From positions 195,813 through 259,812 of the forward strand of contig CAWDJM010000016.1 in the NCBI GenBank assembly GCA_963802655.1: a stretch of 64,000 bases of DNA. Reading direction: 5' to 3'. Position numbers and translations under genes: made by a program. This DNA comes from an uncultured Solirubrobacterales bacterium (GTDB lineage: Bacteria; Actinomycetota; Thermoleophilia; Solirubrobacterales; Solirubrobacteraceae). How positions within the stretch are numbered: the first letter of the stretch is position 1; each line of letters begins with the position of its first letter. A model generated the notes under the pieces. That model was not told where the DNA came from, searched no databases, and worked only from the letters and a program-made list of their open reading frames with translations. This document shows positions 3,827 through 58,798 of this stretch, piece by piece.

Positions 3827-4663
3827 TCACGCGGCCGCCTCGTGCGGCGCCGGCGCGGACCGCGCGGTGACCGCGGGACGCACCGCCGGGCGTGCGCGGT
3901 CGGAGCCCCGCGCCCGGTGCTCGAGGCAGAAGATGACAAACGCCACGGTCACCGGCACCGTCGCGGGCAGCCACCCGACGAGCGGCAGCAGCATCCCCGA
4001 CCCGGTCGCCAGCGCGATCAGCAACATCGCCGCGCGGCCCTGGTAGCGGTGCCCGGCCAGAAAGCCGCCGAGCACCCCGGCCAGCACCAGGTCGGGATAG
4101 TCGGTGGCGATCGGCCCGAACGCGGCCTGATCGAACGTCGGCAGGTGCACCCTGGCGGTGGCGCCGGCCATCACCTGCGACGCCGTCTCCCCCGCGCCCG
4201 ACATCAGCAAGACCACGTCGGCGGCGCACATGCAGACCACGCCCACCAGCATCCACTTGGCGGGGATCAACCGCACCAGCCCGGCCCCCAGGGCGAGGCA
4301 CCCCAGCGCGGTTACGAGGGTGTCGGAGGTCTCGCTCAGCCAGCCGGTCACGCGCGCGGTCCCGAGCGCAAGCCCGAGCCCAGCGGCGATCAGCGCCGGC
4401 TTCGGGCCCCGGACGACAGCGAGGATCGCGACCAAAGCGAGCGCGGGCGTGGCCACCGCGGCCAGCACGACCAGGGCTCGCGCCATCGATGGCGCGGCCA
4501 GTGGGCCGAACGTCCCGATCAGGATCGATCCCGGCAGCAACGCCGCCCACGCGGGCGACCGCAAGCGATGCAGCTGAGCGAGCGCGTCGGCTCTCGGCAG
4601 GGCCACGAGTCCGCCCTCGATCGTCGCCAGAACGATGATCGCCAGGAAACTCGAGAGGCTCAA
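3827..4663 (-). CDS. integral membrane protein, function unknown
   Basis: 278 aa with about 8 hydrophobic segments and GC-rich third codon positions. I recognise no family motif. Confidence 0.5.
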   Translation of the reverse strand: MSLSSFLAIIVLATIEGGLVALPRADALAQLHRLRSPAWAALLPGSILIGTFGPLAAPSMARALVVLAAVATPALALVAILAVVRGPKPALIAAGLGLALGTARVTGWLSETSDTLVTALGCLALGAGLVRLIPAKWMLVGVVCMCAADVVLLMSGAGETASQVMAGATARVHLPTFDQAAFGPIATDYPDLVLAGVLGGFLAGHRYQGRAAMLLIALATGSGMLLPLVGWLPATVPVTVAFVIFCLEHRARGSDRARPAVRPAVTARSAPAPHEAAA

Positions 4664-4836: not shown

Positions 4837-5418
4837 TCAGGCGACGCGCGCGGCGGGCATCGCCGGCGCCTGCACCGTCAGGAGCTCCGCTTCGAGCTCC
4901 CTGACCAAGGACGAGTCGGGCAGCCGCTCCGCCAGCAATAGCAGACAGCGGTTGTAGTGATCCAGGCGCCGCTCGAGCAGCCCTGGGCCCAGCGGCACGA
5001 CCACGCGCAGCTCGCGGGCCTTGGACACCTTGTCGGCGGCGAACACGGCCAGCGCGTCGGGGCCGGCGGCCGCGACGTTGTTGCGCAGCGCCGCCTTGCG
5101 GCGACCATAGTTGGCGATGCTCTCGTCCTCGCTGACCGCGGACACCAGCCCGGCCACACGATCGCCGAACCGCCCCGACAACTCGGCCCGGTCGGCCCGG
5201 GTCTTCTCGAGCGTGTCGTGCAGGACGCCGGCGGCGACCACCTCGTCGTCGGCGCCGGTCGCGGCCAGCAACGAGGCCACCTCGAGGGGGTGGGCGATGA
5301 ACGGCTTGCCGTCTGACTGGCGGCGCTGCCCTTCGTGCAGGTCGGTTGCGTACTCGAGCGCAGCGCGCGTCAACGGGAGCTCTGAGAGGAACTCCGGGGT
5401 GGGGTTCGGTCCAATCAC
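4837..5418 (-). CDS. HD-domain phosphohydrolase (RelA/SpoT-type small alarmone hydrolase-like)
   Basis: 193 aa. The motif HPLEVASLLAATGADDEVVAAGVLHDTLEKT carries the H...HD metal-binding pattern of the (p)ppGpp hydrolase fold. GTG start. Confidence 0.75.
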   Translation of the reverse strand: MIGPNPTPEFLSELPLTRAALEYATDLHEGQRRQSDGKPFIAHPLEVASLLAATGADDEVVAAGVLHDTLEKTRADRAELSGRFGDRVAGLVSAVSEDESIANYGRRKAALRNNVAAAGPDALAVFAADKVSKARELRVVVPLGPGLLERRLDHYNRCLLLLAERLPDSSLVRELEAELLTVQAPAMPAARVA

Positions 5419-14681: not shown

Positions 14682-15430
14682 GCGGTGGCCTTGTCGGTCG
14701 GTGTGGTGCGCGGATCGTTGAGGATCGCCGCGATGTACTCGAGGTCTGAGAGGTCCTGCCCGTACATGTTGTCGCGCGATAGCGAGAGGCCGAACGCGAC
14801 GGCTCCGACGAGCAACCCGACGACGGTCACGCTGAACGCGACCTGGAGGTTCGAGCTCAGCGCGGCGGTGTTGCCGTTGGCGAGCCCGGTCAGCGCGGGC
14901 GACAGCGGGATCAGCGTGCCCATCAGCCCCAGCGCCGGACCGGCCCGCACCAGCAGCCGCGTGCGCCCGAGCCGCCGCTGGGCGTCGAAGTCGAAGTCGG
15001 CCAGCGCCTTGTTGATCTCGTGGTCGCTGCCGTCGGTCCGCGAGTGCTCGACGATGAACGCGAGCGTGCCCGCCATCGCCTGGCTCTGCGCGAGGCCGCT
15101 GACCGCCGCCTCCGCGCCCTGGCGGTCGCCCTGCAGCAGCGCCTCGCGCGCCCGCTCGGCCCCGCTCGACAGCACCGCGTACCGGCGCCGCCGGCGGCCG
15201 CGCAGCTCGATCACAAAGCTGCCGAGCTCGAAGATCACCAGCGCAAGCGCGACCAGCGCGAGGATCAGCACGGGCACGCGCAGCGCGTTGGCGACGTGGA
15301 AGATGACCTCGTCGATGTCGTGGGTGGTGAGGGCGAAGATCACGAGAACGTCGGCGATGGTGCCACGGCCCTCAGTGGTTGTCCAGTAGTAGGGTCGCAC
15401 CGAGAGGTGACACCGGTGGATGGATCGCAA
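14678..15430 (-). CDS. MotA/TolQ/ExbB proton-channel family protein
   Basis: The C-terminal signature is LVRAGPALGLMGTLIPLSPALTGLANGNTAALSSNLQVAFSVTVVGLLVGAVAF. The start is uncertain. ATG 15430 and GTG 15400 lie inside the repeat element, so GTG 15343 is a plausible true start. Confidence 0.75.
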   Translation of the reverse strand: MRSIHRCHLSVRPYYWTTTEGRGTIADVLVIFALTTHDIDEVIFHVANALRVPVLILALVALALVIFELGSFVIELRGRRRRRYAVLSSGAERAREALLQGDRQGAEAAVSGLAQSQAMAGTLAFIVEHSRTDGSDHEINKALADFDFDAQRRLGRTRLLVRAGPALGLMGTLIPLSPALTGLANGNTAALSSNLQVAFSVTVVGLLVGAVAFGLSLSRDNMYGQDLSDLEYIAAILNDPRTTPTDKATA

Positions 15431-15510
15431 GGACGCAGGACCGAATGCGTAGCGGAGCTACGTCGAGGTCGACGCCGCGAGCCGCCGCCGGGGGCGACTC
15501 GAATGCGACC
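15392..15510 (+). repeat. palindromic repeat element, core copy (related to 35275..35447)
   Basis: The outer stem is GGGTCGCA...TGCGACC and the central hairpin is GCGTAGC-GGA-GCTACG (15447-15462). By eye the left arm and loop are about 80% identical to 35301-35367, in the same orientation. Confidence 0.7.
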
Positions 15511-15530
15511 GTGCTTGCGTGGGCGGCCAC

Positions 15531-16931
15531 TCAGTGGGCGGTACGCGAGCGGCGGCGGCCGCGCAGTTCGTGCCACGCGCCGAGGCCGAGCAATGCGGCT
15601 ACCGCCAGCCCGGCGCCGATCGCGGTCAGCGGCGATGTGGTCACGCTCGTGGCCTGCCGTACGGTCGGCGCGGCGGACGCGGTGGCGGGCACGAGCGGGC
15701 TCGAGCTCTGCGGCAGCGGCGTGACGTCCGCGATCAGCCTGCCGGTGACCAGCGGGCCGGTTGCGGTCGGAGCGGGCTTGTGTGAGGTGGTCCGCTTCGG
15801 GGGCGCACGGTGGGGAGTCGGCGGCGCGGGCGTGGTCGTGGGCGTGGTGGTGGCCGGCGTGGACGCGGTCGGCGTGGTGGTCGTCGATGTGGAGGACTGC
15901 GGCTTTGGCTGCTGGCCGCTCGACGTCGGACTGGACTGTCCTGACGAGTAGCCATTCTGGTTCGAGTTCCCGGACTGCTTGGAGCCGCCGGTGCCGGGGT
16001 TCTGGTTGGGCCCGCCGTTGTCCTTGCCGGTCGGGGACTTCGAGTTCGTGTGCTTGTGGCCGCCGCTCTGTTTGTGGTTGCTCGGAGCGGGTTGGGTAGG
16101 GGTCGTGACCCGGGTCGTGGCGGTGCCCGCGTTGCCGCTCGCCGGGTCGGTCACCTGAACGCTCACGAAGTACGAAGCCCAGGTTGACCCGTGGACGACG
16201 CTGGCCTGCGTCGACGTCTTTCCAGTGTCCTGAAACGTCCATTGCCACTTCAGCGAGGACGGCGGGACGGCGGCCCCGTCGGAAGTGACCGACGCTGAAA
16301 ACTTCAATGCCGTACTGCCTGGGACCGAACGTGTCTTGACCAAGACCGCCAACGGCTGGCTCTTAACCCAAACCAGGATCGTGATCGGCCCGTCGGCGGT
16401 GACGCTGTCCTTGCTGTTGTCATCGCTGCCCCCGCGAAACGGCCGGGCATAGTAGTTGGGACCTGACGGACCGTTGGACGCGATAACCGGCACCGCACCC
16501 GGGTCCTGTGGGTCGTGGTAACTCGTCGGGTCGACTAGATCGGCGTTGGATAGGGGATCTTCGAACCCACTTCCGTTTGCCCGTTGCACCTGAACGTTCG
16601 TCACGTCACTGGTCGGGATCTGCAGGGCGCAGCTGAGCACGGTCGCCAGCGTCCAAGTGGAGCCCGACGGCAGGTTGCCGCCGGGGGACGGTGGGGGTAC
16701 GTACAGCTGGGTCTCGTCGGTCGCCTGACACTCCTGTAGAGCCTGCAGCGCGAGCACGCGTGTGCCCGAGCCCGGATACACGGTCGCGCTGACCACGGGC
16801 ACATCGGCGGACGCGGTCGCCGCCGCGCACGCCGCGACCACCAGCGAGCCCGCGAGCGATAACCACAACCGCCGCCCCGGGAAAACCCCGGGGCGGCGGT
16901 TGAAAGAGCTCCCAGATTGGGTCCGGCGCAA
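15531..16931 (-). CDS. exported PKD-like / Pro-Thr-Ser-rich protein with C-terminal membrane anchor
   Basis: 466 aa. It has a signal peptide (LWLSLAGSLVVAACAAATASA), a PKD-like stretch LKWQWTFQDTGKT...VSVQVTDPASGNAGTATTRV, and a long low-complexity linker rich in S, T, P, G, N and Q. A terminal TM helix is followed by RGRRRSRTAH. Confidence 0.7.
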   Translation of the reverse strand: MRRTQSGSSFNRRPGVFPGRRLWLSLAGSLVVAACAAATASADVPVVSATVYPGSGTRVLALQALQECQATDETQLYVPPPSPGGNLPSGSTWTLATVLSCALQIPTSDVTNVQVQRANGSGFEDPLSNADLVDPTSYHDPQDPGAVPVIASNGPSGPNYYARPFRGGSDDNSKDSVTADGPITILVWVKSQPLAVLVKTRSVPGSTALKFSASVTSDGAAVPPSSLKWQWTFQDTGKTSTQASVVHGSTWASYFVSVQVTDPASGNAGTATTRVTTPTQPAPSNHKQSGGHKHTNSKSPTGKDNGGPNQNPGTGGSKQSGNSNQNGYSSGQSSPTSSGQQPKPQSSTSTTTTPTASTPATTTPTTTPAPPTPHRAPPKRTTSHKPAPTATGPLVTGRLIADVTPLPQSSSPLVPATASAAPTVRQATSVTTSPLTAIGAGLAVAALLGLGAWHELRGRRRSRTAH

Positions 16932-33436: not shown

Positions 33437-34993
33437 ATGAACCAGTCGATGGCCGACACGACGTTTGCGGCGCACGATCCGCGCACCGGCGCGGTGCTCC
33501 AGACCTACACCGACGCGACCGACGGCCAGATCGCCGCGGCCTGCGCCGCCGCCCGGGAGGCGGTCCCGGCGCTGCGCGACGACGCCGTCCGCGCGGGGCT
33601 GCTGCGCGCGATCGCGCGGCGGCTGCGCGAGGCCGGCGACGAGCTGCACGACATCTGCGAGCTCGAGACGGGTCTCCCCCGCGCCCGCCTCGAGGGCGAG
33701 CTCGAGCGCACCTGCGTGCAGCTCGAGTTGATGGCCGACGCCGCCGCCGGCGGCAGCCACGTCGAGGCGATCATCGACACCGCCGAGCCCGACGCTCCGA
33801 TCGCGCCGCGCCCCGATCTGCGGCGGATGCTCGTCCCGCTCGGGCCGGTTGCGGTGTTCGGCGCCAGCAACTTCCCCTATGCGTTCAGCGTCGCCGGCGG
33901 CGACACCGCGTCCGCCCTGGCCGCCGGCTGTCCGGTCGTGGTCAAGGGCCACCCGTCGCACCCTGGCACGTCGGAGCAGGTCGCCGCCTGCGTGACCGCT
34001 GCCGTGGACGAGCTCGGATTGCCGGCGGGCACGTTCTCGCTCGTGCACGGCGCCTCCAGCCATGTCGGCGAGCAGCTGGCGCGGGCCGAGGAGATCGAGG
34101 CGATCGGCTTCACCGGCTCGCTCGTGGGCGGCCGCGCGCTGTTCGACGTCGCCGCCGCGCGGGATCGACCGATCCCGGTGTACGCCGAGATGGGGTCGGT
34201 CAACCCGACGGTGATCAGCCCGGGCGCGCTGCGCGCCCGCAGCGATGCGATCGCCGAGGGACTGACGGCCTCGATCACCGGCGGCACGGGTCAGTTCTGC
34301 ACCAAGCCCGGGGTCGTGCTGGTCCCGGCGGGCGCCGACGGGGACGCGTTCGCCGATGACGTCGCCCGGCGCCTGGCCCAGGTCGAGGCCGCGCCCTTGC
34401 TCAACGCGCGGATCTGTTCCGCGCTGCGCGCCGCGCTGGCCGACCTCGACCGCGATCCTGACGTGACACGGCTCGGGCCTGGTGGCGAGGATTCGGAGGG
34501 CGCAGCCGGCGGTGGCTACCTGCAGGTGCCCGTGCTGTACGCGATCGACGCCGCGACGGCGACGCGCCGGCCGGAGCTGCTCGACGAGCACTTCGGACCG
34601 ACGGCGCTGCTCATCCGCTACGACGGGCTCGAGTCCGCCGCCGGGGTGATCGGCGTGCTGGGCGGCCAGCTGACCGGGACGCTCCACGCCGAGGCCGACG
34701 AGCTCGACGGGTTGCGGGGGATCGTGGCCGGGCTCGAGGAACTTGCTGGACGCGTGATCTTCAACGGGTTTCCGACGGGGGTCGCGGTCACCCACGCGAT
34801 GCAGCATGGCGGGCCGTACCCCGCGACGACCGCGCTGCACACGTCGGTCGGGACCACTGCGATCCGCCGCTTCCAGCGCCCGGTGACCTGGCAGAACGCT
34901 CCCGCCGAACTGCTGCCCGCCGCGCTGCAGGACGCCAACCCGCTGGGAATCTGGCGGCTGGTCAACGGCGAGTTCACGCGCGACGCGGTTTAG
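33437..34993 (+). CDS. aldehyde dehydrogenase, alpha-ketoglutaric semialdehyde dehydrogenase-like
   Basis: 518 aa from ATG 33437. It contains FGASNFPYAFSVAGGDTASALAAGCPVVVKGHPSHP and FTGSLVGGRAL, and its size and motifs fit the KGSADH type. It is divergent from the GntR gene with a 39-bp spacer. Confidence 0.85.
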   Translation: MNQSMADTTFAAHDPRTGAVLQTYTDATDGQIAAACAAAREAVPALRDDAVRAGLLRAIARRLREAGDELHDICELETGLPRARLEGELERTCVQLELMADAAAGGSHVEAIIDTAEPDAPIAPRPDLRRMLVPLGPVAVFGASNFPYAFSVAGGDTASALAAGCPVVVKGHPSHPGTSEQVAACVTAAVDELGLPAGTFSLVHGASSHVGEQLARAEEIEAIGFTGSLVGGRALFDVAAARDRPIPVYAEMGSVNPTVISPGALRARSDAIAEGLTASITGGTGQFCTKPGVVLVPAGADGDAFADDVARRLAQVEAAPLLNARICSALRAALADLDRDPDVTRLGPGGEDSEGAAGGGYLQVPVLYAIDAATATRRPELLDEHFGPTALLIRYDGLESAAGVIGVLGGQLTGTLHAEADELDGLRGIVAGLEELAGRVIFNGFPTGVAVTHAMQHGGPYPATTALHTSVGTTAIRRFQRPVTWQNAPAELLPAALQDANPLGIWRLVNGEFTRDAV

Positions 34994-35573
34994 TGTCCGC
35001 GACGCCGCGCCCGCCCGACAGCGTCAGCCGGTTCTTGGCCGAGGCCAACCCCGCGGTGATCGCGACGATTGCGCCCGGCGGCGAGCCGCACACGGTTGCC
35101 ACCCGGTACCTGTGGGAGGACGGCCGGTTGTTCGTCAACATGGACGCGGACCGCAAGCGCCTGCAGCACCTCCGGCGCGACCCGCGCGTGTCGCTGACCG
35201 TGCTCGGCAAGGACGATTGGTCGGTCCACGTGACGCTCGCCGGGCGGGTCGCCTCGCTCGATCCCGACCCGGATCTAGTGTCGCGTTTGGGAAGTTCGTG
35301 GGCACCGAGAGGTGCCACTGGTGGATGCTTGGCGAGGACGCAGGAGCCGTGGCGTAGCGGAGCTACGCGAGGCGACGAGGACGAAGCCGAGCGCCGCCAG
35401 GGGTGCCTCGAATGCACGCGAATTTTCCAAACGTGACACTAGTGTCGATCGACCGCCTGGCCCGGCACTACACCGGCGAGCCGTTCTCCAGGCGCGACCG
35501 CCGGCGCGTCAGCGCCTGGATCGACGTCGATCACTGGCACGGGTGGGCCGGCGCCGGGCCCTGGGACGGTTAG
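34993..35573 (+). pseudogene. PPOX-class (pyridoxamine 5'-phosphate oxidase / F420-dependent) protein gene interrupted by a 164-bp insertion
   Basis: The N-terminal part runs to ...VASLDPDPDLVS (35283). The C-terminal part IDRLARHYTGEPFSRRDRRRVSAWIDVDHWHGWAGAGPWDG* resumes at 35448 in a different frame. Removing the insert restores one ORF. Confidence 0.75.
35275..35447 (+). mobile_element. MITE-like palindromic insertion with flanking direct repeats
   Basis: The 9-bp direct repeat CTAGTGTCG occurs at 35275-35283 and 35439-35447. Imperfect terminal inverted repeats of about 29 bp are present, and the element folds as a long hairpin centred on GCGTAGC-GGA-GCTACGC. It has no coding capacity. 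Confidence 0.7.
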
Positions 35574-35658
35574 CGGCGACAGGCGCCCACGGACCGGGTC
35601 ACATGATCAACGCCCCACTCCAGGTGTCCCGGCCGAACCGTGGGACGTTGACCACGTC

Positions 35659-36141
35659 TCACGTGACTAACGCCCCGCGGTCCGTCCAGAAGGGCTCGAG
35701 TGGGGCGTTCGCCCGGCCGATGGCGCCCGGCGGAAGCAGCTGTCCGTCGGAAATAGTAGGTTTTCGCAGGATTCTGCAAATTCTGCGGATCTGACCCATG
35801 CAGACACGTGGGAACTGTGACGTGGGCTCGGGCACGGTCGACAAGCCCCTGTAGACCGGGACTCGGCGCCTGCGACGCAGGCTCCGGCGCCGATCGTTTC
35901 GCCTGGCGATCGGCGCCGTAGCTCTGCCCTCAGCGCTCGGGACTGCCCCAGGCTGCGCGGCGGCGCCGGAACGAGCCTCGCGCCGCAACCGCCGCGCCAG
36001 CTCACTCGCCCGGTCCAGCGCCAGCGGCAGCTCGTCGCACCGGTTCGAGGCGATCGCCGCGAACTCGCGCAACCTCGCGTTCGCCAGCTCGCGCTCGGCT
36101 ACCTCGCCGATCTGGTGCAGCTTCGAACTCGTGAGCTCCAC
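35659..36141 (-). CDS. hypothetical protein (weak)
   Basis: 160-aa ORF. The first 55 or so codons have strong GC3 bias and a helical sequence (LANARLREFAAIASNRCDELPLALDRASELARRL). The 3' half runs through a repeat-rich, lower-GC region and may not be coding. Confidence 0.25.
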   Translation of the reverse strand: MELTSSKLHQIGEVAERELANARLREFAAIASNRCDELPLALDRASELARRLRREARSGAAAQPGAVPSAEGRATAPIARRNDRRRSLRRRRRVPVYRGLSTVPEPTSQFPRVCMGQIRRICRILRKPTISDGQLLPPGAIGRANAPLEPFWTDRGALVT

Positions 36142-36266
36142 CGGAGCGTTTCGGCGAAGCCCACGTGGTCCGCACGCGAACGGGACCGTTCACGCGCGCA
36201 CCGCCCTGGTATCACGCGCGGATCGCGCGCTCGCACCACAGCAACCTGACCCCACAGCAATCGACG

Positions 36267-37109
36267 ATGGGGATCCGGTCGCAGGCTCTCGATAGCCTCG
36301 ACCGGATGCAAGCTGCACGCTTCACCCGCTACGTGGCGATCGGCGACAGCACCACCGAGGGGCTCGACGACCCGTCCCCGGACGGGCTCGGCTACCTCGG
36401 GTTCGCCGACCGCCTGGCGGCGCGGCTGGCCCAAGACCAGCCCGGTCTGCTGTACGCCAACCTGGGCATCCGTGGCCGTAAGCTGCGCCAGATCCGCGAC
36501 GAGCAGCTCGAGCCCGCGCTGGCGCTGGACCCCGACCTGGCCAGCGTGGTCGGCGGCCTCAACGACATCCTCCGTCCTCGCTGCGACATCGGGACGCTGG
36601 CCGCGATCCTCGAGCAGATGGTCGCGGCCCTGACCGCCCGCGGTGCGACCGTTCTGGGGATGACGTTCCCCGATGCCGCCAAGGTGATGCCCGCCGCGCT
36701 CCCGGCGCGCCGGCGGATGCAGGCGTTCAACGCCGCGATCCGCTCGATCGGGGAGCGTCACGGGATGCTCGTCGCCGACCTCGACCGCAACGGCGTCATT
36801 GACCCGCGGCTGTGGGCGGTCGACCGCCTGCACGCGAACACGGCCGGTCACATCCGCATCGCGGCGGCGATGGAGCAGGCGCTCGGCCTCGAGCCCGCGG
36901 AGGACCCCTGGGCCCTGTTGCCGCCCGCGCCCGGCGTCTCCCGGGCCGCGGTGTGGCGCCGCGAGGCGCTGTGGATGGGGCGCCACGCGGCCCCGTGGAT
37001 CATGCGCCGCGTCCGCGGCCGCTCCTCAGGCGACGGCCGCAGCGCCAAGCGCCCGGAGCTGGCGCCGGTCGTGCTGACAGAGGCAGACACGGCCGCCGAG
37101 CCCGTTTGA
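36267..37109 (+). CDS. SGNH/GDSL-family hydrolase
   Basis: Block I is YVAIGDSTTEG, block III is GGLNDI, and the C-terminal D..H is in DRLHANTAGH. The start is ATG 36267 or 36306. Confidence 0.8.
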   Translation: MGIRSQALDSLDRMQAARFTRYVAIGDSTTEGLDDPSPDGLGYLGFADRLAARLAQDQPGLLYANLGIRGRKLRQIRDEQLEPALALDPDLASVVGGLNDILRPRCDIGTLAAILEQMVAALTARGATVLGMTFPDAAKVMPAALPARRRMQAFNAAIRSIGERHGMLVADLDRNGVIDPRLWAVDRLHANTAGHIRIAAAMEQALGLEPAEDPWALLPPAPGVSRAAVWRREALWMGRHAAPWIMRRVRGRSSGDGRSAKRPELAPVVLTEADTAAEPV

Positions 37110-55790: not shown

Positions 55791-56510
55791 GTGACCCCGT
55801 CCCGGCTGACGCGAGCCGTGAGGCTGCGCGCGACGGTGCGCGCGCACCGGGGCAACGCGGTCTTCTGCCCGCTGTGCGAGGGGCACTTCGACCGCTTCAA
55901 GGACGACTGGAACCGCGCCGACGCGCTGTGCTGGCGGTGCGGTTCGCACGAGCGCCACCGCGCCCAGTGGCTGCTGTTCGAACGCCGCCCGGAGCTGCTG
56001 CGCGAGGCCGGGTCGCTGCTGCACTTCGCCCCCGAGTGGGCGCTGCGACGCCGATTTGAACATGTAAGAGAGTTGCGGTACGTAACGGCCGATCTGGATC
56101 AGCCAGGGGTCGACCTGTCGCTCGACGTCAGAGCGATCGCGCTGCCCGACGCCAGCTTCGACGCGGTTCTGTGTTCGCACGTGCTCGAGCACGTCGACGA
56201 CGATGCCGCGGCGATGGCCGAGCTGCGGCGGATCACCGCGCCGGGCGGGTGGTGCGTGGTGATGGTCCCGCTCGACCTGGGCCGCGAGCGCACCTACGAG
56301 GACGCGGCGATCACCGCGCCCGCCGACCGCGAGCGGGCGTTCTGGCAGCGCGACCACGTCCGCCTGTACGCGCCCGACATCGGCGCGCGCCTGGCCGCGG
56401 CCGGCTTCGACGTCGAGCGGATCCGCCCCGACGCCGAGTTCGGCCCCGAGCTGACCGCCCGCTGCCGGATCGGCGCGGCCGACGACATCTGGCTGTGCCG
56501 GCCGGGGTGA
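55791..56510 (+). CDS. class I SAM-dependent methyltransferase with N-terminal Cys4 zinc-ribbon-like segment
   Basis: CPLCEG...CWRCGS is followed by FDAVLCSHVLEHVDDDAAAMAELRRITAPGGWCVVMVP. The start is GTG 55791 or 55782. Confidence 0.7.
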   Translation: MTPSRLTRAVRLRATVRAHRGNAVFCPLCEGHFDRFKDDWNRADALCWRCGSHERHRAQWLLFERRPELLREAGSLLHFAPEWALRRRFEHVRELRYVTADLDQPGVDLSLDVRAIALPDASFDAVLCSHVLEHVDDDAAAMAELRRITAPGGWCVVMVPLDLGRERTYEDAAITAPADRERAFWQRDHVRLYAPDIGARLAAAGFDVERIRPDAEFGPELTARCRIGAADDIWLCRPG

Positions 56511-57822: not shown

Positions 57823-58798
57823 TCACCCGCTCGACGGCTGTCCCGGGTCTGCGGCGCCCTCGCGCTCATCGCGATCCGCCCATGCCAGCAGCGGATCGAG
57901 CGCGAACACCGCGTCGTCGATGCCCTCGTGCAGGTCCCCGAGCCGGGCGAATCGCTCCGGAACGGTGGCGATCGTGAAGTCCTGGGGCTCGACGTCGTCG
58001 ATCTCGTCCCACCGCACCGGGGTCGACACCGTTGCATCACGGACCCCGCGCACCGAGTAGGCGCTGGCGATCGTGTGATCGCGGGCGTTCTGGTTGTAGT
58101 CGACGAACACCTTGTCGACCTCCCGGTCCTTGCGCCACCAGGTGGTGGTAGCGTCAGCCGGCGCCCGGCGCTCCACCTCGCGGGCGAACGCCAGCGCGGC
58201 GCGGCGGACGTCGTGAAAACCCCACCGCGGCGGGATCCGGACGTAGATGTGAAGCCCCGAGCCACCGGACGTCTTCGGCCAGCCGACGGCGCCTAGCTCG
58301 TCGAGCACCTCGTGGGCGACCCCGGCCACTCGCCGGACCGTGTCGAGCTCGCACTCGGGCATCGGATCGAGGTCGATCCGCCACTCGTCGGGGCATTCGA
58401 CGTCGGCGCGGCGCGAGTTCCAGGGGTGAAACTCGACGGTCGCCATCTGCACCGCCCAGATCACGCTGCCGAGCTCGGTCACGCACAGCTCGTCAGCGTG
58501 GCGGCCGGACGGGAAGTCGACCCGGACCGTCTGCACCCACGCTGGCGCGCCCTTGCGGGATCCGCTTCTGGTGGACCTTCTTGTCGTCCACGCCCTTGGG
58601 GAACCGGTGCAGCATGCACGGGCGCTCGCGGAGCGCCCGCACAATCCCGTCGCCGACGCCGATGTAGTAGCGGGCCAGGTCGAGCTTGGTCTCGCCCCGG
58701 GCGGAGAAGTACACGCGGTCGGGGCTCGAGATCCGGACGGTCCTGCCTCCGACCTCGAGCTCGACCGCAGGTGTGCTGTTCGCGGGGGTCACGGTCAT
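57823..58798 (-). pseudogene. stand-alone LigD polymerase/primase domain gene, frameshifted
   Basis: The N-terminal part (frame of ORF 58493..59218) is MTVTPANSTPAVELEVGGRTVRISSPDRVYFSARGETKLDLARYYIGVGDGIVRALRERPCMLHRFPKGVDDKKVHQKRIPQG. The remainder (ORF 57823..58644 frame) is APAWVQTVRVDFPSGRHADE...EFHPWNSR...KTSGGSGLHIYV. The 976-nt span is 3n+1, and the junction is near 58545-58560. Confidence 0.75.

Follow-up and report, generated by a model that had tools for sequence, protein, structure and literature searches.

A palindromic MITE-like insertion in a PPOX gene belongs to a previously undescribed hairpin superfamily of Solirubrobacterales-type soil Actinobacteria

Introduction

Bacterial MITEs (miniature inverted-repeat transposable elements), such as Correia/NEMIS, ERIC/IRU and RUP, form a class of 100-200-bp repeats with terminal inverted repeats (TIRs), a TA at either terminus and the ability to fold into long stem-loops; they are mostly intergenic and co-transcribed with their neighbors, with occasional intragenic copies (PMC2229807). 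Here, we describe an element of this kind that occupies positions 35278-35439 of a 64,000-nt stretch of contig CAWDJM010000016.1, from an uncultured Solirubrobacterales bacterium, where it interrupts a gene for a PPOX/F420-type protein. We call the whole stretch the window, and positions are given in its coordinates. The element is very probably a non-autonomous, non-coding hairpin MITE of an undescribed superfamily that integrated at the TA of a CTAG site and, by analogy, was probably moved in trans by a TA-targeting DDE transposase.

Several groups of mobile sequences provide a background for this reading. Transposition of the insertion sequence (IS) IS630 type duplicates a TA and involves 24-bp inverted repeats (PMC2170065), and transposases of the IS630/Tc1-mariner group can move short derivatives in trans, with RUP attributed to IS630-Spn1 (PMC2229807, PMC2170065). 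The IS5 family, which is widespread in Actinomycetales, is associated with CTAG repeats (PMC9241763). Rickettsia palindromic elements (RPE), which are also MITE-like, lie inside conserved protein genes, where they are translated in frame and tolerated (PMC2229807).

Further groups enter the comparison through their defining features. The IS427 group of the IS5 family targets YTAR and duplicates the central TA, and the termini of IS5/PIF-Harbinger elements carry GTTTGG-like or CCGAAA-like motifs, which may resemble the arms of the family described here. REP sequences have a GTAG head and no target duplication, and flank a single-copy RAYT gene. Integron attC sites have RYYYAAC...GTTRRRY core sites, an adjacent cassette open reading frame (ORF) and a dedicated integrase, IntI. 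IS200/IS605 PATEs have separate subterminal hairpins and neither TIRs nor a target duplication, and insert 3' of a tetra- or pentanucleotide.

Results

A 162-bp element splits a PPOX gene

The ORF that begins at 34993 runs into the element and ends at a stop codon at 35434-35436, and the frame of the C-terminal part is open from 35358. The gene is thereby present as a 147-amino-acid ORF and a 56-amino-acid ORF, its reading frame having been shifted because 164 bp were added. The parts of the locus are as follows.

34993-35277, plus strand: 5' portion of the gene (PPOX/PNPOx_N), encoding residues 1-95 up to and including Leu codon CTA; the element inserted at the TA of this codon
35276-35277, no strand: left copy of the TA target duplication
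35278-35439, plus strand (the well-folding strand): element proper, subfamily A1, 162 bp, GTGTCGCG...CGTGACAC (GTGTCG...GACAC), profile E = 1.3e-38
35278-35304, plus strand: left TIR, about 27 nt
35334-35382, plus strand: conserved core, with GAGGACGCAGGA at 35334-35345, GCGTAGC-GGA-GCTACGC at 35352-35368 and CGAGGAC at 35376-35382
35413-35439, plus strand: right TIR
35440-35441, no strand: right copy of the TA target duplication
35442-35447, plus strand: GTGTCG patch, duplicating the opening 6 nt of the element in place of ancestral GCCGGA (AG to VS in the protein)
35448-35573, plus strand: 3' part of the PPOX gene (IDRLARHYTG...WDG and stop), out of frame with the 5' part in the window genome

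Without the 164 bp the gene encodes 138 amino acids, which match PF01243 (PNPOx_N) over profile positions 3-119/120 (E = 7.6e-16) and have 1392 homologs in a search of 5.8 billion clustered proteins. A preliminary description of this locus, made from the sequence alone, had assigned the frame from 34993 to a PPOX/F420-type protein and had placed the family-typical C-terminus at 35448 in another frame; the Pfam match and homologs bear out the former and the ORF frames the latter. The nearest homologs are uninterrupted proteins of 137 amino acids, 82-89% identical and labeled PPOX-class F420-dependent enzyme, with which the restored protein aligns without a gap at the junction. Thus, both the full-length PF01243 match and syntenic orthologs of the same length identify the host gene as a PNPOx_N/PPOX-class F420-dependent enzyme.

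Empty sites are present in the syntenic loci L034-L040 (L-numbers label our comparison loci), in which the gene is uninterrupted and the nucleotide identity to the window is 81-91%. Their neighborhood of Pro_racemase, GntR, Aldedh, PNPOx, GDSL lipase and sigma-70 genes is shared with the window, and in most syntenic relatives a MerR gene follows PNPOx. A search for empty sites and an alignment of orthologs across the junction had been proposed as checks; the 164 bp are absent from the genes of these loci, and because these orthologs are uninterrupted, we conclude that the insertion is real and derived. The same insertion is present in four non-identical assemblies from different samples (the window, L033, L080 and L081), which differ from one another by single-nucleotide polymorphisms (SNPs) elsewhere.

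The element is one of at least 45 dispersed copies

Copies of the element, each about 160 bp long, number at least 45 in metagenome-assembled genomes (MAGs) of Solirubrobacterales and in soil metagenomes. Scanning one genome per species with the 21-mer arm consensus, or terminus, gave 32 matches, six of which are relatives in Solirubrobacterales or Actinomycetota MAGs. These include full-length copies at unrelated loci in two other Solirubrobacterales MAGs (L005 and L012, 95.0% and 94.4% identical), the members of a subfamily B with the same termini and a different interior (L019 and L030, 161 bp, and the apparently truncated L025), and a 77-bp mini version. About 25 of the 32 matches were rejected as coincidences inside conserved coding sequence of unrelated bacteria (L001-L004, L006-L011, L013-L018, L020-L024, L026-L029 and L032). 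Coding sequence that is highly conserved in unrelated phyla, presumably that of an ABC-type ATPase judging by eye, thus also contains the 21-mer GTGTCRCGTTTGGRAARTTCG, which makes this a trap for pattern searches with the terminus.

In the JGI metagenomes the exact 23-mer of the left terminus had no match, and the central core matched 39 loci, at which the copies are hairpins of 156-162 bp with GTG...CAC tips. A profile search found one copy per locus. It detected two copies in the window (35278-35439 and 15375-15530) and another in L037, which is the closest relative's syntenic locus. Only short chance matches were found in a plasmid collection, and none in viral contigs with two core patterns. 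A copy count had been among the checks suggested for the locus, and its result, dispersed copies with both filled and empty sites, joins small size, lack of coding capacity, TIRs and a short target duplication as features by which bacterial MITEs are recognized. No paper containing the core sequence was found in the literature. We conclude that this is a previously undescribed hairpin superfamily of Solirubrobacterales-type soil Actinobacteria.

Two C-type copies, L042 10427-10585 and L055 5385-5544, have an identical AT-rich left flank (tgtgttacttagtgatgattgcggc) and different right flanks, which suggests either that sequence was rearranged at the element or that a repeated unit of greater size is involved.

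The family duplicates a TA and often lies at stop codons

A TA flanks the left end in 23 of 33 family copies and the right end in 19 of 29; this TA is mostly preceded by C and followed by G, giving a CTAG-like target. The preliminary description had defined a 164-bp insert by the direct repeat CTAGTGTCG, which is indeed perfect at 35275-35283 and 35439-35447, 164 nt apart; the element proper is 162 bp, and the repeat is not its target duplication. Instead, the alternative offered there, a TA duplication with TIRs beginning at GTGTCG, proved correct, as other copies retain GTGTCG internally and have only TA on both sides. The nearest relatives read CTGG at the insertion point, and a single synonymous change from CTGG to CTAG would have created the target before insertion.

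For many copies, the distance to the end of an open frame is 2-5 nt, and TA and the terminal G of the element form a TAG stop; we attribute this to stop codons being among the few TAs in a 71%-GC genome. The family thus shows how a TA-specific element lives in such a genome, using scarce TAs, largely at stop codons, and rebuilding TAG with its own G. In L046, L066 and L041, the copy takes up the space that separates two convergent genes. Copies are in mixed orientation with respect to host genes; a count by eye gave about 5 sense, 11 antisense and 3 convergent, which is not significant. Among the approximately 45 copies, the one in the PPOX gene is the only intragenic one; ORFs of L078, L060 and L047 that appeared to span the element as in-frame copies were rejected as upstream read-through of genes that start just after it.

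The 95%-identical copy in L005 (1444-1605) lies in a ribosomal-protein operon between rplX and rplE. The TAG stop of rplX uses the last base of the element and rplE starts 14 nt away, such that this hairpin must be transcribed within an essential operon.

One strand of the element folds into a conserved hairpin

As the preliminary description had proposed, the element is a long imperfect hairpin with its apex at GCGTAGC-GGA-GCTACGC (35352-35368). Folded as DNA, the window stretch has a minimum free energy of -52.1 kcal/mol (z = -6.9), and none of 200 shuffles folded as well. The inverted arms, described as imperfect TIRs of about 29 bp, span 30 nt (35275-35304 and 35413-35442), are 83% complementary and are kept in other copies; within the window, the terminal 21-mer recurs only as its own inverted partner.

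An alignment of 26 full-length copies yielded a single end-to-end hairpin with 34 consensus pairs, 18 of which show compensatory double changes. Paired cells made up 92.3% of the total, versus 30-41% with the partners slid against each other, and there were 131 double-change cells versus about 44; no shuffle out of 500 reached the observed values. The outer arms diverge between subfamilies yet co-vary, and the core, composed of GAGGACGCAGGA, the GGA-loop apical hairpin and CGAGGAC, is invariant or nearly so in all subfamilies. This invariance is partly a product of the search pattern; the purine motifs lie outside the pattern and are retained in the L037 copy despite its different apex.

The two strands do not fold equally. 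In 26 of 26 copies the plus (purine-rich) strand folds better than its complement, by a mean of -29 kcal/mol as RNA and -13 kcal/mol as DNA, and the non-Watson-Crick cells comprise 104 G:T versus 6 A:C. As random decay of a palindrome would produce both types of mismatch equally, what appears to be maintained is the fold of one specific strand. Better folding of the plus strand is also seen in subfamily B, the L037 copy and a 34-nt stub in the window. Transcription driven by host genes does not explain the asymmetry, because the orientation of copies relative to those genes is mixed.

An additional branch hairpin, with the conserved loop GCGAGGC(C/G)GGATGCCGAGCGGGCC, is present in four copies belonging to three subfamilies, and its position in the right arm is the same in each. 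The branch is about 60 nt long and lies directly 3' of CGAGGAC (L047 at approximately 5290-5350, L059/L067, L061/L076 and L068). It is either a structural module or another element in its own right, tiny and with high target specificity.

The element itself is non-coding: it lacks 3-nt periodicity, and there is no reading frame that stays open in every copy. A small-protein origin is likewise unsupported by the family copies, which have no conserved ORF and no periodicity, and ARAGORN gave no match that would indicate a tRNA-like origin. Comparison of window positions 34000-37000 with Rfam covariance models gave no relevant match at E <= 1, and 7 loci from other subfamilies likewise had none at E <= 0.5.

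The right flank is sometimes overwritten with the left tip

Comparison with the empty sites accounts for the 9-bp repeat. The closest of them read GAT CTG GCC GGA ATC at a position where the window, minus 164 bp, reads GAT CTA GTG TCG ATC. Six of 7 consecutive bases are changed at the junction, and about 30 nt on either side are the same but for one base. With empty sites 90-91% identical overall, such clustering has a probability of approximately 1e-3, before requiring that the new bases match the first six of the element. Deleting the insert and one repeat copy, as the preliminary description had done, restores a full-length PNPOx_N gene in frame; the resulting ...DLVSIDRL... is not the ancestral protein, as the orthologs all read ...DL(A/E)(G/A)IDRL... 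at the junction and no intact LVS allele was found among the 5.8 billion clustered proteins.

In three or four other copies as well, sequence of the left tip recurs in the right flank. It does so over 7 nt in L078, 8 nt in L060 (after a 1-nt spacer) and 4 nt in the copy at 15.4 kb of the window. At the site upstream of merR, the window, L034 and L040 have the ancestral G(T/C)TCG as right flank; L037 instead has GTGGG, which matches its own left tip, with no change in length. The mirror-image comparison, in which a left flank would carry the right tip, produced no genuine counterpart. We conclude that overwriting of the right flank occurs in some copies, in register and subsequent to insertion.

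As a working idea, the nascent plus strand may snap into its strong hairpin and re-prime at the left junction through the shared CTA. The re-primed strand would recopy a few bases, and this tail would be fixed over the right flank when the element re-anneals. Such snap-back and re-priming would explain both the preserved length and the one-sidedness of the overwriting. Alternatively, donor flank may have been carried over through imprecise 5' cleavage; the ISY100 transposase cuts linear substrates 1-8 nt outside the end (PMC2170065).

Sister assemblies show different fates of the PPOX gene

The window and L033 share the 164-bp, frameshifting insert and a CGG codon (Arg38) at 35104, which is TGG (Trp) in L080, L081 and the orthologs examined. 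Trp38 is invariant across 35 aligned sequences, in which the L080 allele stood for that of the window. By its sequence, the window PPOX gene is a pseudogene, frameshifted and without the invariant Trp.

Over about 6.5 kb, 8 substitutions and just one indel separate L080 from the window. This indel, +G at 35399/35400, extends G4 to G5, makes the insert 165 bp and thereby creates one ORF of 193 amino acids.

L080 3001-3582, corresponding to window 34993-35573: fused gene

The chance of such a restoration arising randomly is about 0.6-2%. AlphaFold predicts that the 193-amino-acid form keeps the PNPOx barrel (pLDDT 81-91), with the 55-amino-acid insert, residues 94-148, as a low-confidence loop. 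In L081 (3001-3435), an indel-rich assembly, the frame is restored by a different change, +C at about 35418, and the same gene has a 74-nt deletion (window 35022-35095). Other family copies match the window at both indel positions. Because they, the window and L033 have G4, we conclude that the 164-bp frameshift is ancestral and that the in-frame form is a secondary change, possibly a selected one. One intragenic insertion has thus met three fates among close strains: frameshifted and decaying, restored to a 193-amino-acid frame, and further deleted.

Other family members and neighbors in the window

15375-15530, plus strand: second member, decayed A3-type, 156 nt, TCA on both sides, profile E = 3.7e-26
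36131-36164, minus strand: internally deleted C-type stub, 34 nt (14 nt of left arm and 20 nt of right arm), upstream of the degraded merR

The second member separates two minus-strand genes, lying between the stop of one for 466 amino acids and the start of the other, which is MotA/ExbB-like. An 8-bp direct repeat, CTCAGTGG (TCA + GTGG), is present at 15371-15378 and 15530-15537, and the right-hand TCA serves the 466-amino-acid gene upstream as its stop codon, read as TGA on the minus strand.

The site upstream of merR exists in four states: a full C-type copy in L037 (4242-4424), the 34-nt stub in the window, a shorter stub in L034-L036 (approximately 4390-4420) and an apparently empty site in L040. 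The interior of the hairpin is lost there by internal deletion and the tips stay. The merR-family gene itself (35662-36130, minus strand) has lost about 205 nt, the helix-turn-helix region, relative to L037 3818-4294 and is unrecognized by Pfam, making PPOX and merR two adjacent degraded genes.

A generic scan of the window for GTG...CAC hairpins gave 23 matches, versus 3-8 in shuffles, and beyond the known copies none had TA flanks or an end-to-end hairpin. The candidate at 56133-56357 was rejected, as its z was only -2.1. Elsewhere in the window, 57826-58788 on the minus strand encodes a protein with a LigD primase-polymerase domain (PF21686, E = 5.5e-74). The host thus probably has nonhomologous end joining, which is relevant to repair after transposon excision.

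Discussion

What moved the element?

Our preferred explanation is that the element integrated at the TA of a CTAG inside the PPOX gene, duplicating the TA, and would have been mobilized in trans by a DDE transposase encoded elsewhere, probably, by analogy, one of the IS630/Tc1-mariner type or the IS427 group. The TA duplication, the CTAG preference and the TIRs of about 27 bp point to an IS630/Tc1-mariner or IS5-family mover. A Pfam search of about 50 window ORFs found no transposase, integrase or HUH family, which agrees with the earlier proposal that the element is non-autonomous. Several observations weigh against this explanation. The search for an IS with matching TIRs, suggested along with that proposal, found no autonomous IS with such termini in the comparison loci, plasmids or viral contigs, and the comparison loci contain no pair of family-like ends 0.06-4 kb apart besides the MITEs themselves. 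Copy number per genome looks low. Moreover, a plain double-stranded TIR/DDE model does not predict that the core is better conserved across subfamilies than the TIRs, that the plus strand always folds better, or that only the right flank is ever overwritten, and then with the left tip. These same features would fit a strand-specific, single-stranded mobile element whose folded plus strand, as DNA or RNA, is copied or recombined and whose purine-rich core is a recognition module. The CAC-TA-GTG junction and the overwritten flank would then be footprints of a circular plus strand, of copy-out or of hairpin recombination in the style of REPIN/RAYT, attC or IS200/IS605. The fold advantage and the G:T excess, the persistence of the bias in subfamily B with its different interior, the co-varying arms around a fixed core, the optional branch at one position in three subfamilies and the one-sided flank effect all speak for it. 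Nevertheless, TA duplication, TIRs of about 27 bp and a CTAG-like target are the classic signature of DDE transposition, genes for HUH, Y1 or integrase proteins are missing from the window, the features that define REP, attC and IS200/IS605 are absent, and the copies are in mixed orientation relative to host genes; we therefore consider a single-stranded route quite unlikely. The corresponding view of the whole family, as a strand-specific hairpin replicon or transposon with an active plus strand and a core (GGACGCAGGA, the GGA triloop and CGAGGAC, with the optional GGATGCCGAGCGG branch) that would be a putative binding site for a mobilizing or host factor, seems to us doubtful. If it were true, the in-register overwriting of 5-8 nt of right flank would be a mechanistic scar, left for instance by snap-back of the nascent plus strand and re-priming at the left junction or by a CAC-TA-GTG circle junction; the scar lengthens the flanking direct repeat to 9 bp and should favor precise, reversible excision.

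Other explanations concern the insertion event rather than its machinery. A genuine 9-bp target duplication in the style of IS903, IS4 or IS1, with the ends of the element inside GTGTCG, would fit the perfect 9-bp repeat in the window, the perfect 8-nt repeats at the L060 and 15.4-kb copies and the 9-nt repeat with one mismatch at L078. We reject it as exceedingly improbable: GTGTCG begins the element at unrelated loci with differing right flanks (GTCCAG in L005, GGCAGG in L012 and GTTCAG in L046) and pairs with the right arm, and CTAGTGTCG is absent from empty sites. Almost no credence can be given to a spurious palindromic insertion or fold-back produced by long reads or assembly. Such an artifact might be suspected because the contigs are metagenome-assembled from long reads and assemblies differ by single-base indels inside the element, but it is excluded by the four SNP-divergent assemblies from different samples that share the insertion, and related copies occur in dozens of independent assemblies from two sequencing programs. 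Finally, the insertion might be tolerated and translated in frame, as with RPE, in which case the frameshifted state of the window would reflect either an error of one base in a homopolymer or a lapse of very recent date. That the only indel of L080 over about 6.5 kb should restore the frame has a chance of about 0.006-0.02, the predicted structure accommodates the insert, and in-frame MITE fusions are known (PMC2229807). On the other hand, G4 is found in the window, L033 and all other family copies, the window allele carries W38R at an invariant position, and the apparent rescue in L081 comes from an assembly that is rich in indels and has lost 74 nt of this gene. We regard in-frame tolerance as rather unlikely, and retain instead a frameshifting MITE insertion followed by decay.

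Comparison with known systems

The insertion event itself is ordinary, but the family is unusual in some respects. With it, the Solirubrobacterales (Thermoleophilia) gain a MITE superfamily; these are abundant but poorly studied soil Actinobacteria for which we found no description of mobile repeats. To our knowledge, the transposases of Correia and ERIC elements are unknown, and how such elements are recognized and copied is still an open question. Should transposition chemistry underlie the strand-specific fold and the overwriting of the flank, the family would offer a tractable case for studying recognition and copying of hairpin MITEs.

Three groups of folded elements resemble the family in being imperfect palindromes with a one-strand fold, variable arms and conserved short motifs: REPIN/REP-RAYT, integron attC sites and IS200/IS605 PATEs. 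All of these lack the TA duplication and long TIRs that the family has. Assignment to REP/RAYT was rejected, given tips of GTG...CAC with a TA duplication and no Y1/HUH family in the window; to attC, as the termini do not conform, the copies are found in ordinary operons and the window has no integrase; and to IS200/IS605 PATEs, because the family has one end-to-end hairpin, TIRs and TA on both sides.

Like IS630/Tc1-mariner elements (IS630, ISY100) and their MITEs, the family targets and duplicates TA and has inverted repeats of about 24-27 bp; unlike the IS630 family, it shows strand-specific folding and a conserved core, and no IS630-family element with its termini was found. It shares the CTAG (YTAR) target with the IS5 family (IS5 and IS427 groups), but duplicates TA, in contrast to the 4-bp repeats of the IS5 group proper, and no IS5 parent was found. 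The L080 allele, a 193-amino-acid ORF with a 55-amino-acid disordered loop, recalls RPE. However, at 162 + 2 bp the insertion is not a multiple of 3 and shifts the frame on arrival, such that an in-frame form needs a second mutation, and only 1 of about 45 copies is intragenic.

The closest match is to Correia, ERIC and RUP. Like them, the family is short, non-coding and mostly intergenic, with TIRs, a TA at both termini from target duplication and a stem-loop spanning the whole element, and its optional branch module resembles the Correia length variants with an optional internal segment. Unlike Correia (Neisseria), ERIC (enterobacteria) and RUP (S. pneumoniae), with which it has no sequence similarity, it resides in another phylum at 71% GC, keeps its core conserved across subfamilies whose TIRs have diverged, and folds far better on one strand; it also sits on stop codons, where TA and its own G give TAG, and some of its right flanks are overwritten by its left tip. 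We conclude that this is a new family within a known class, that of the Correia/ERIC/RUP-like MITEs.

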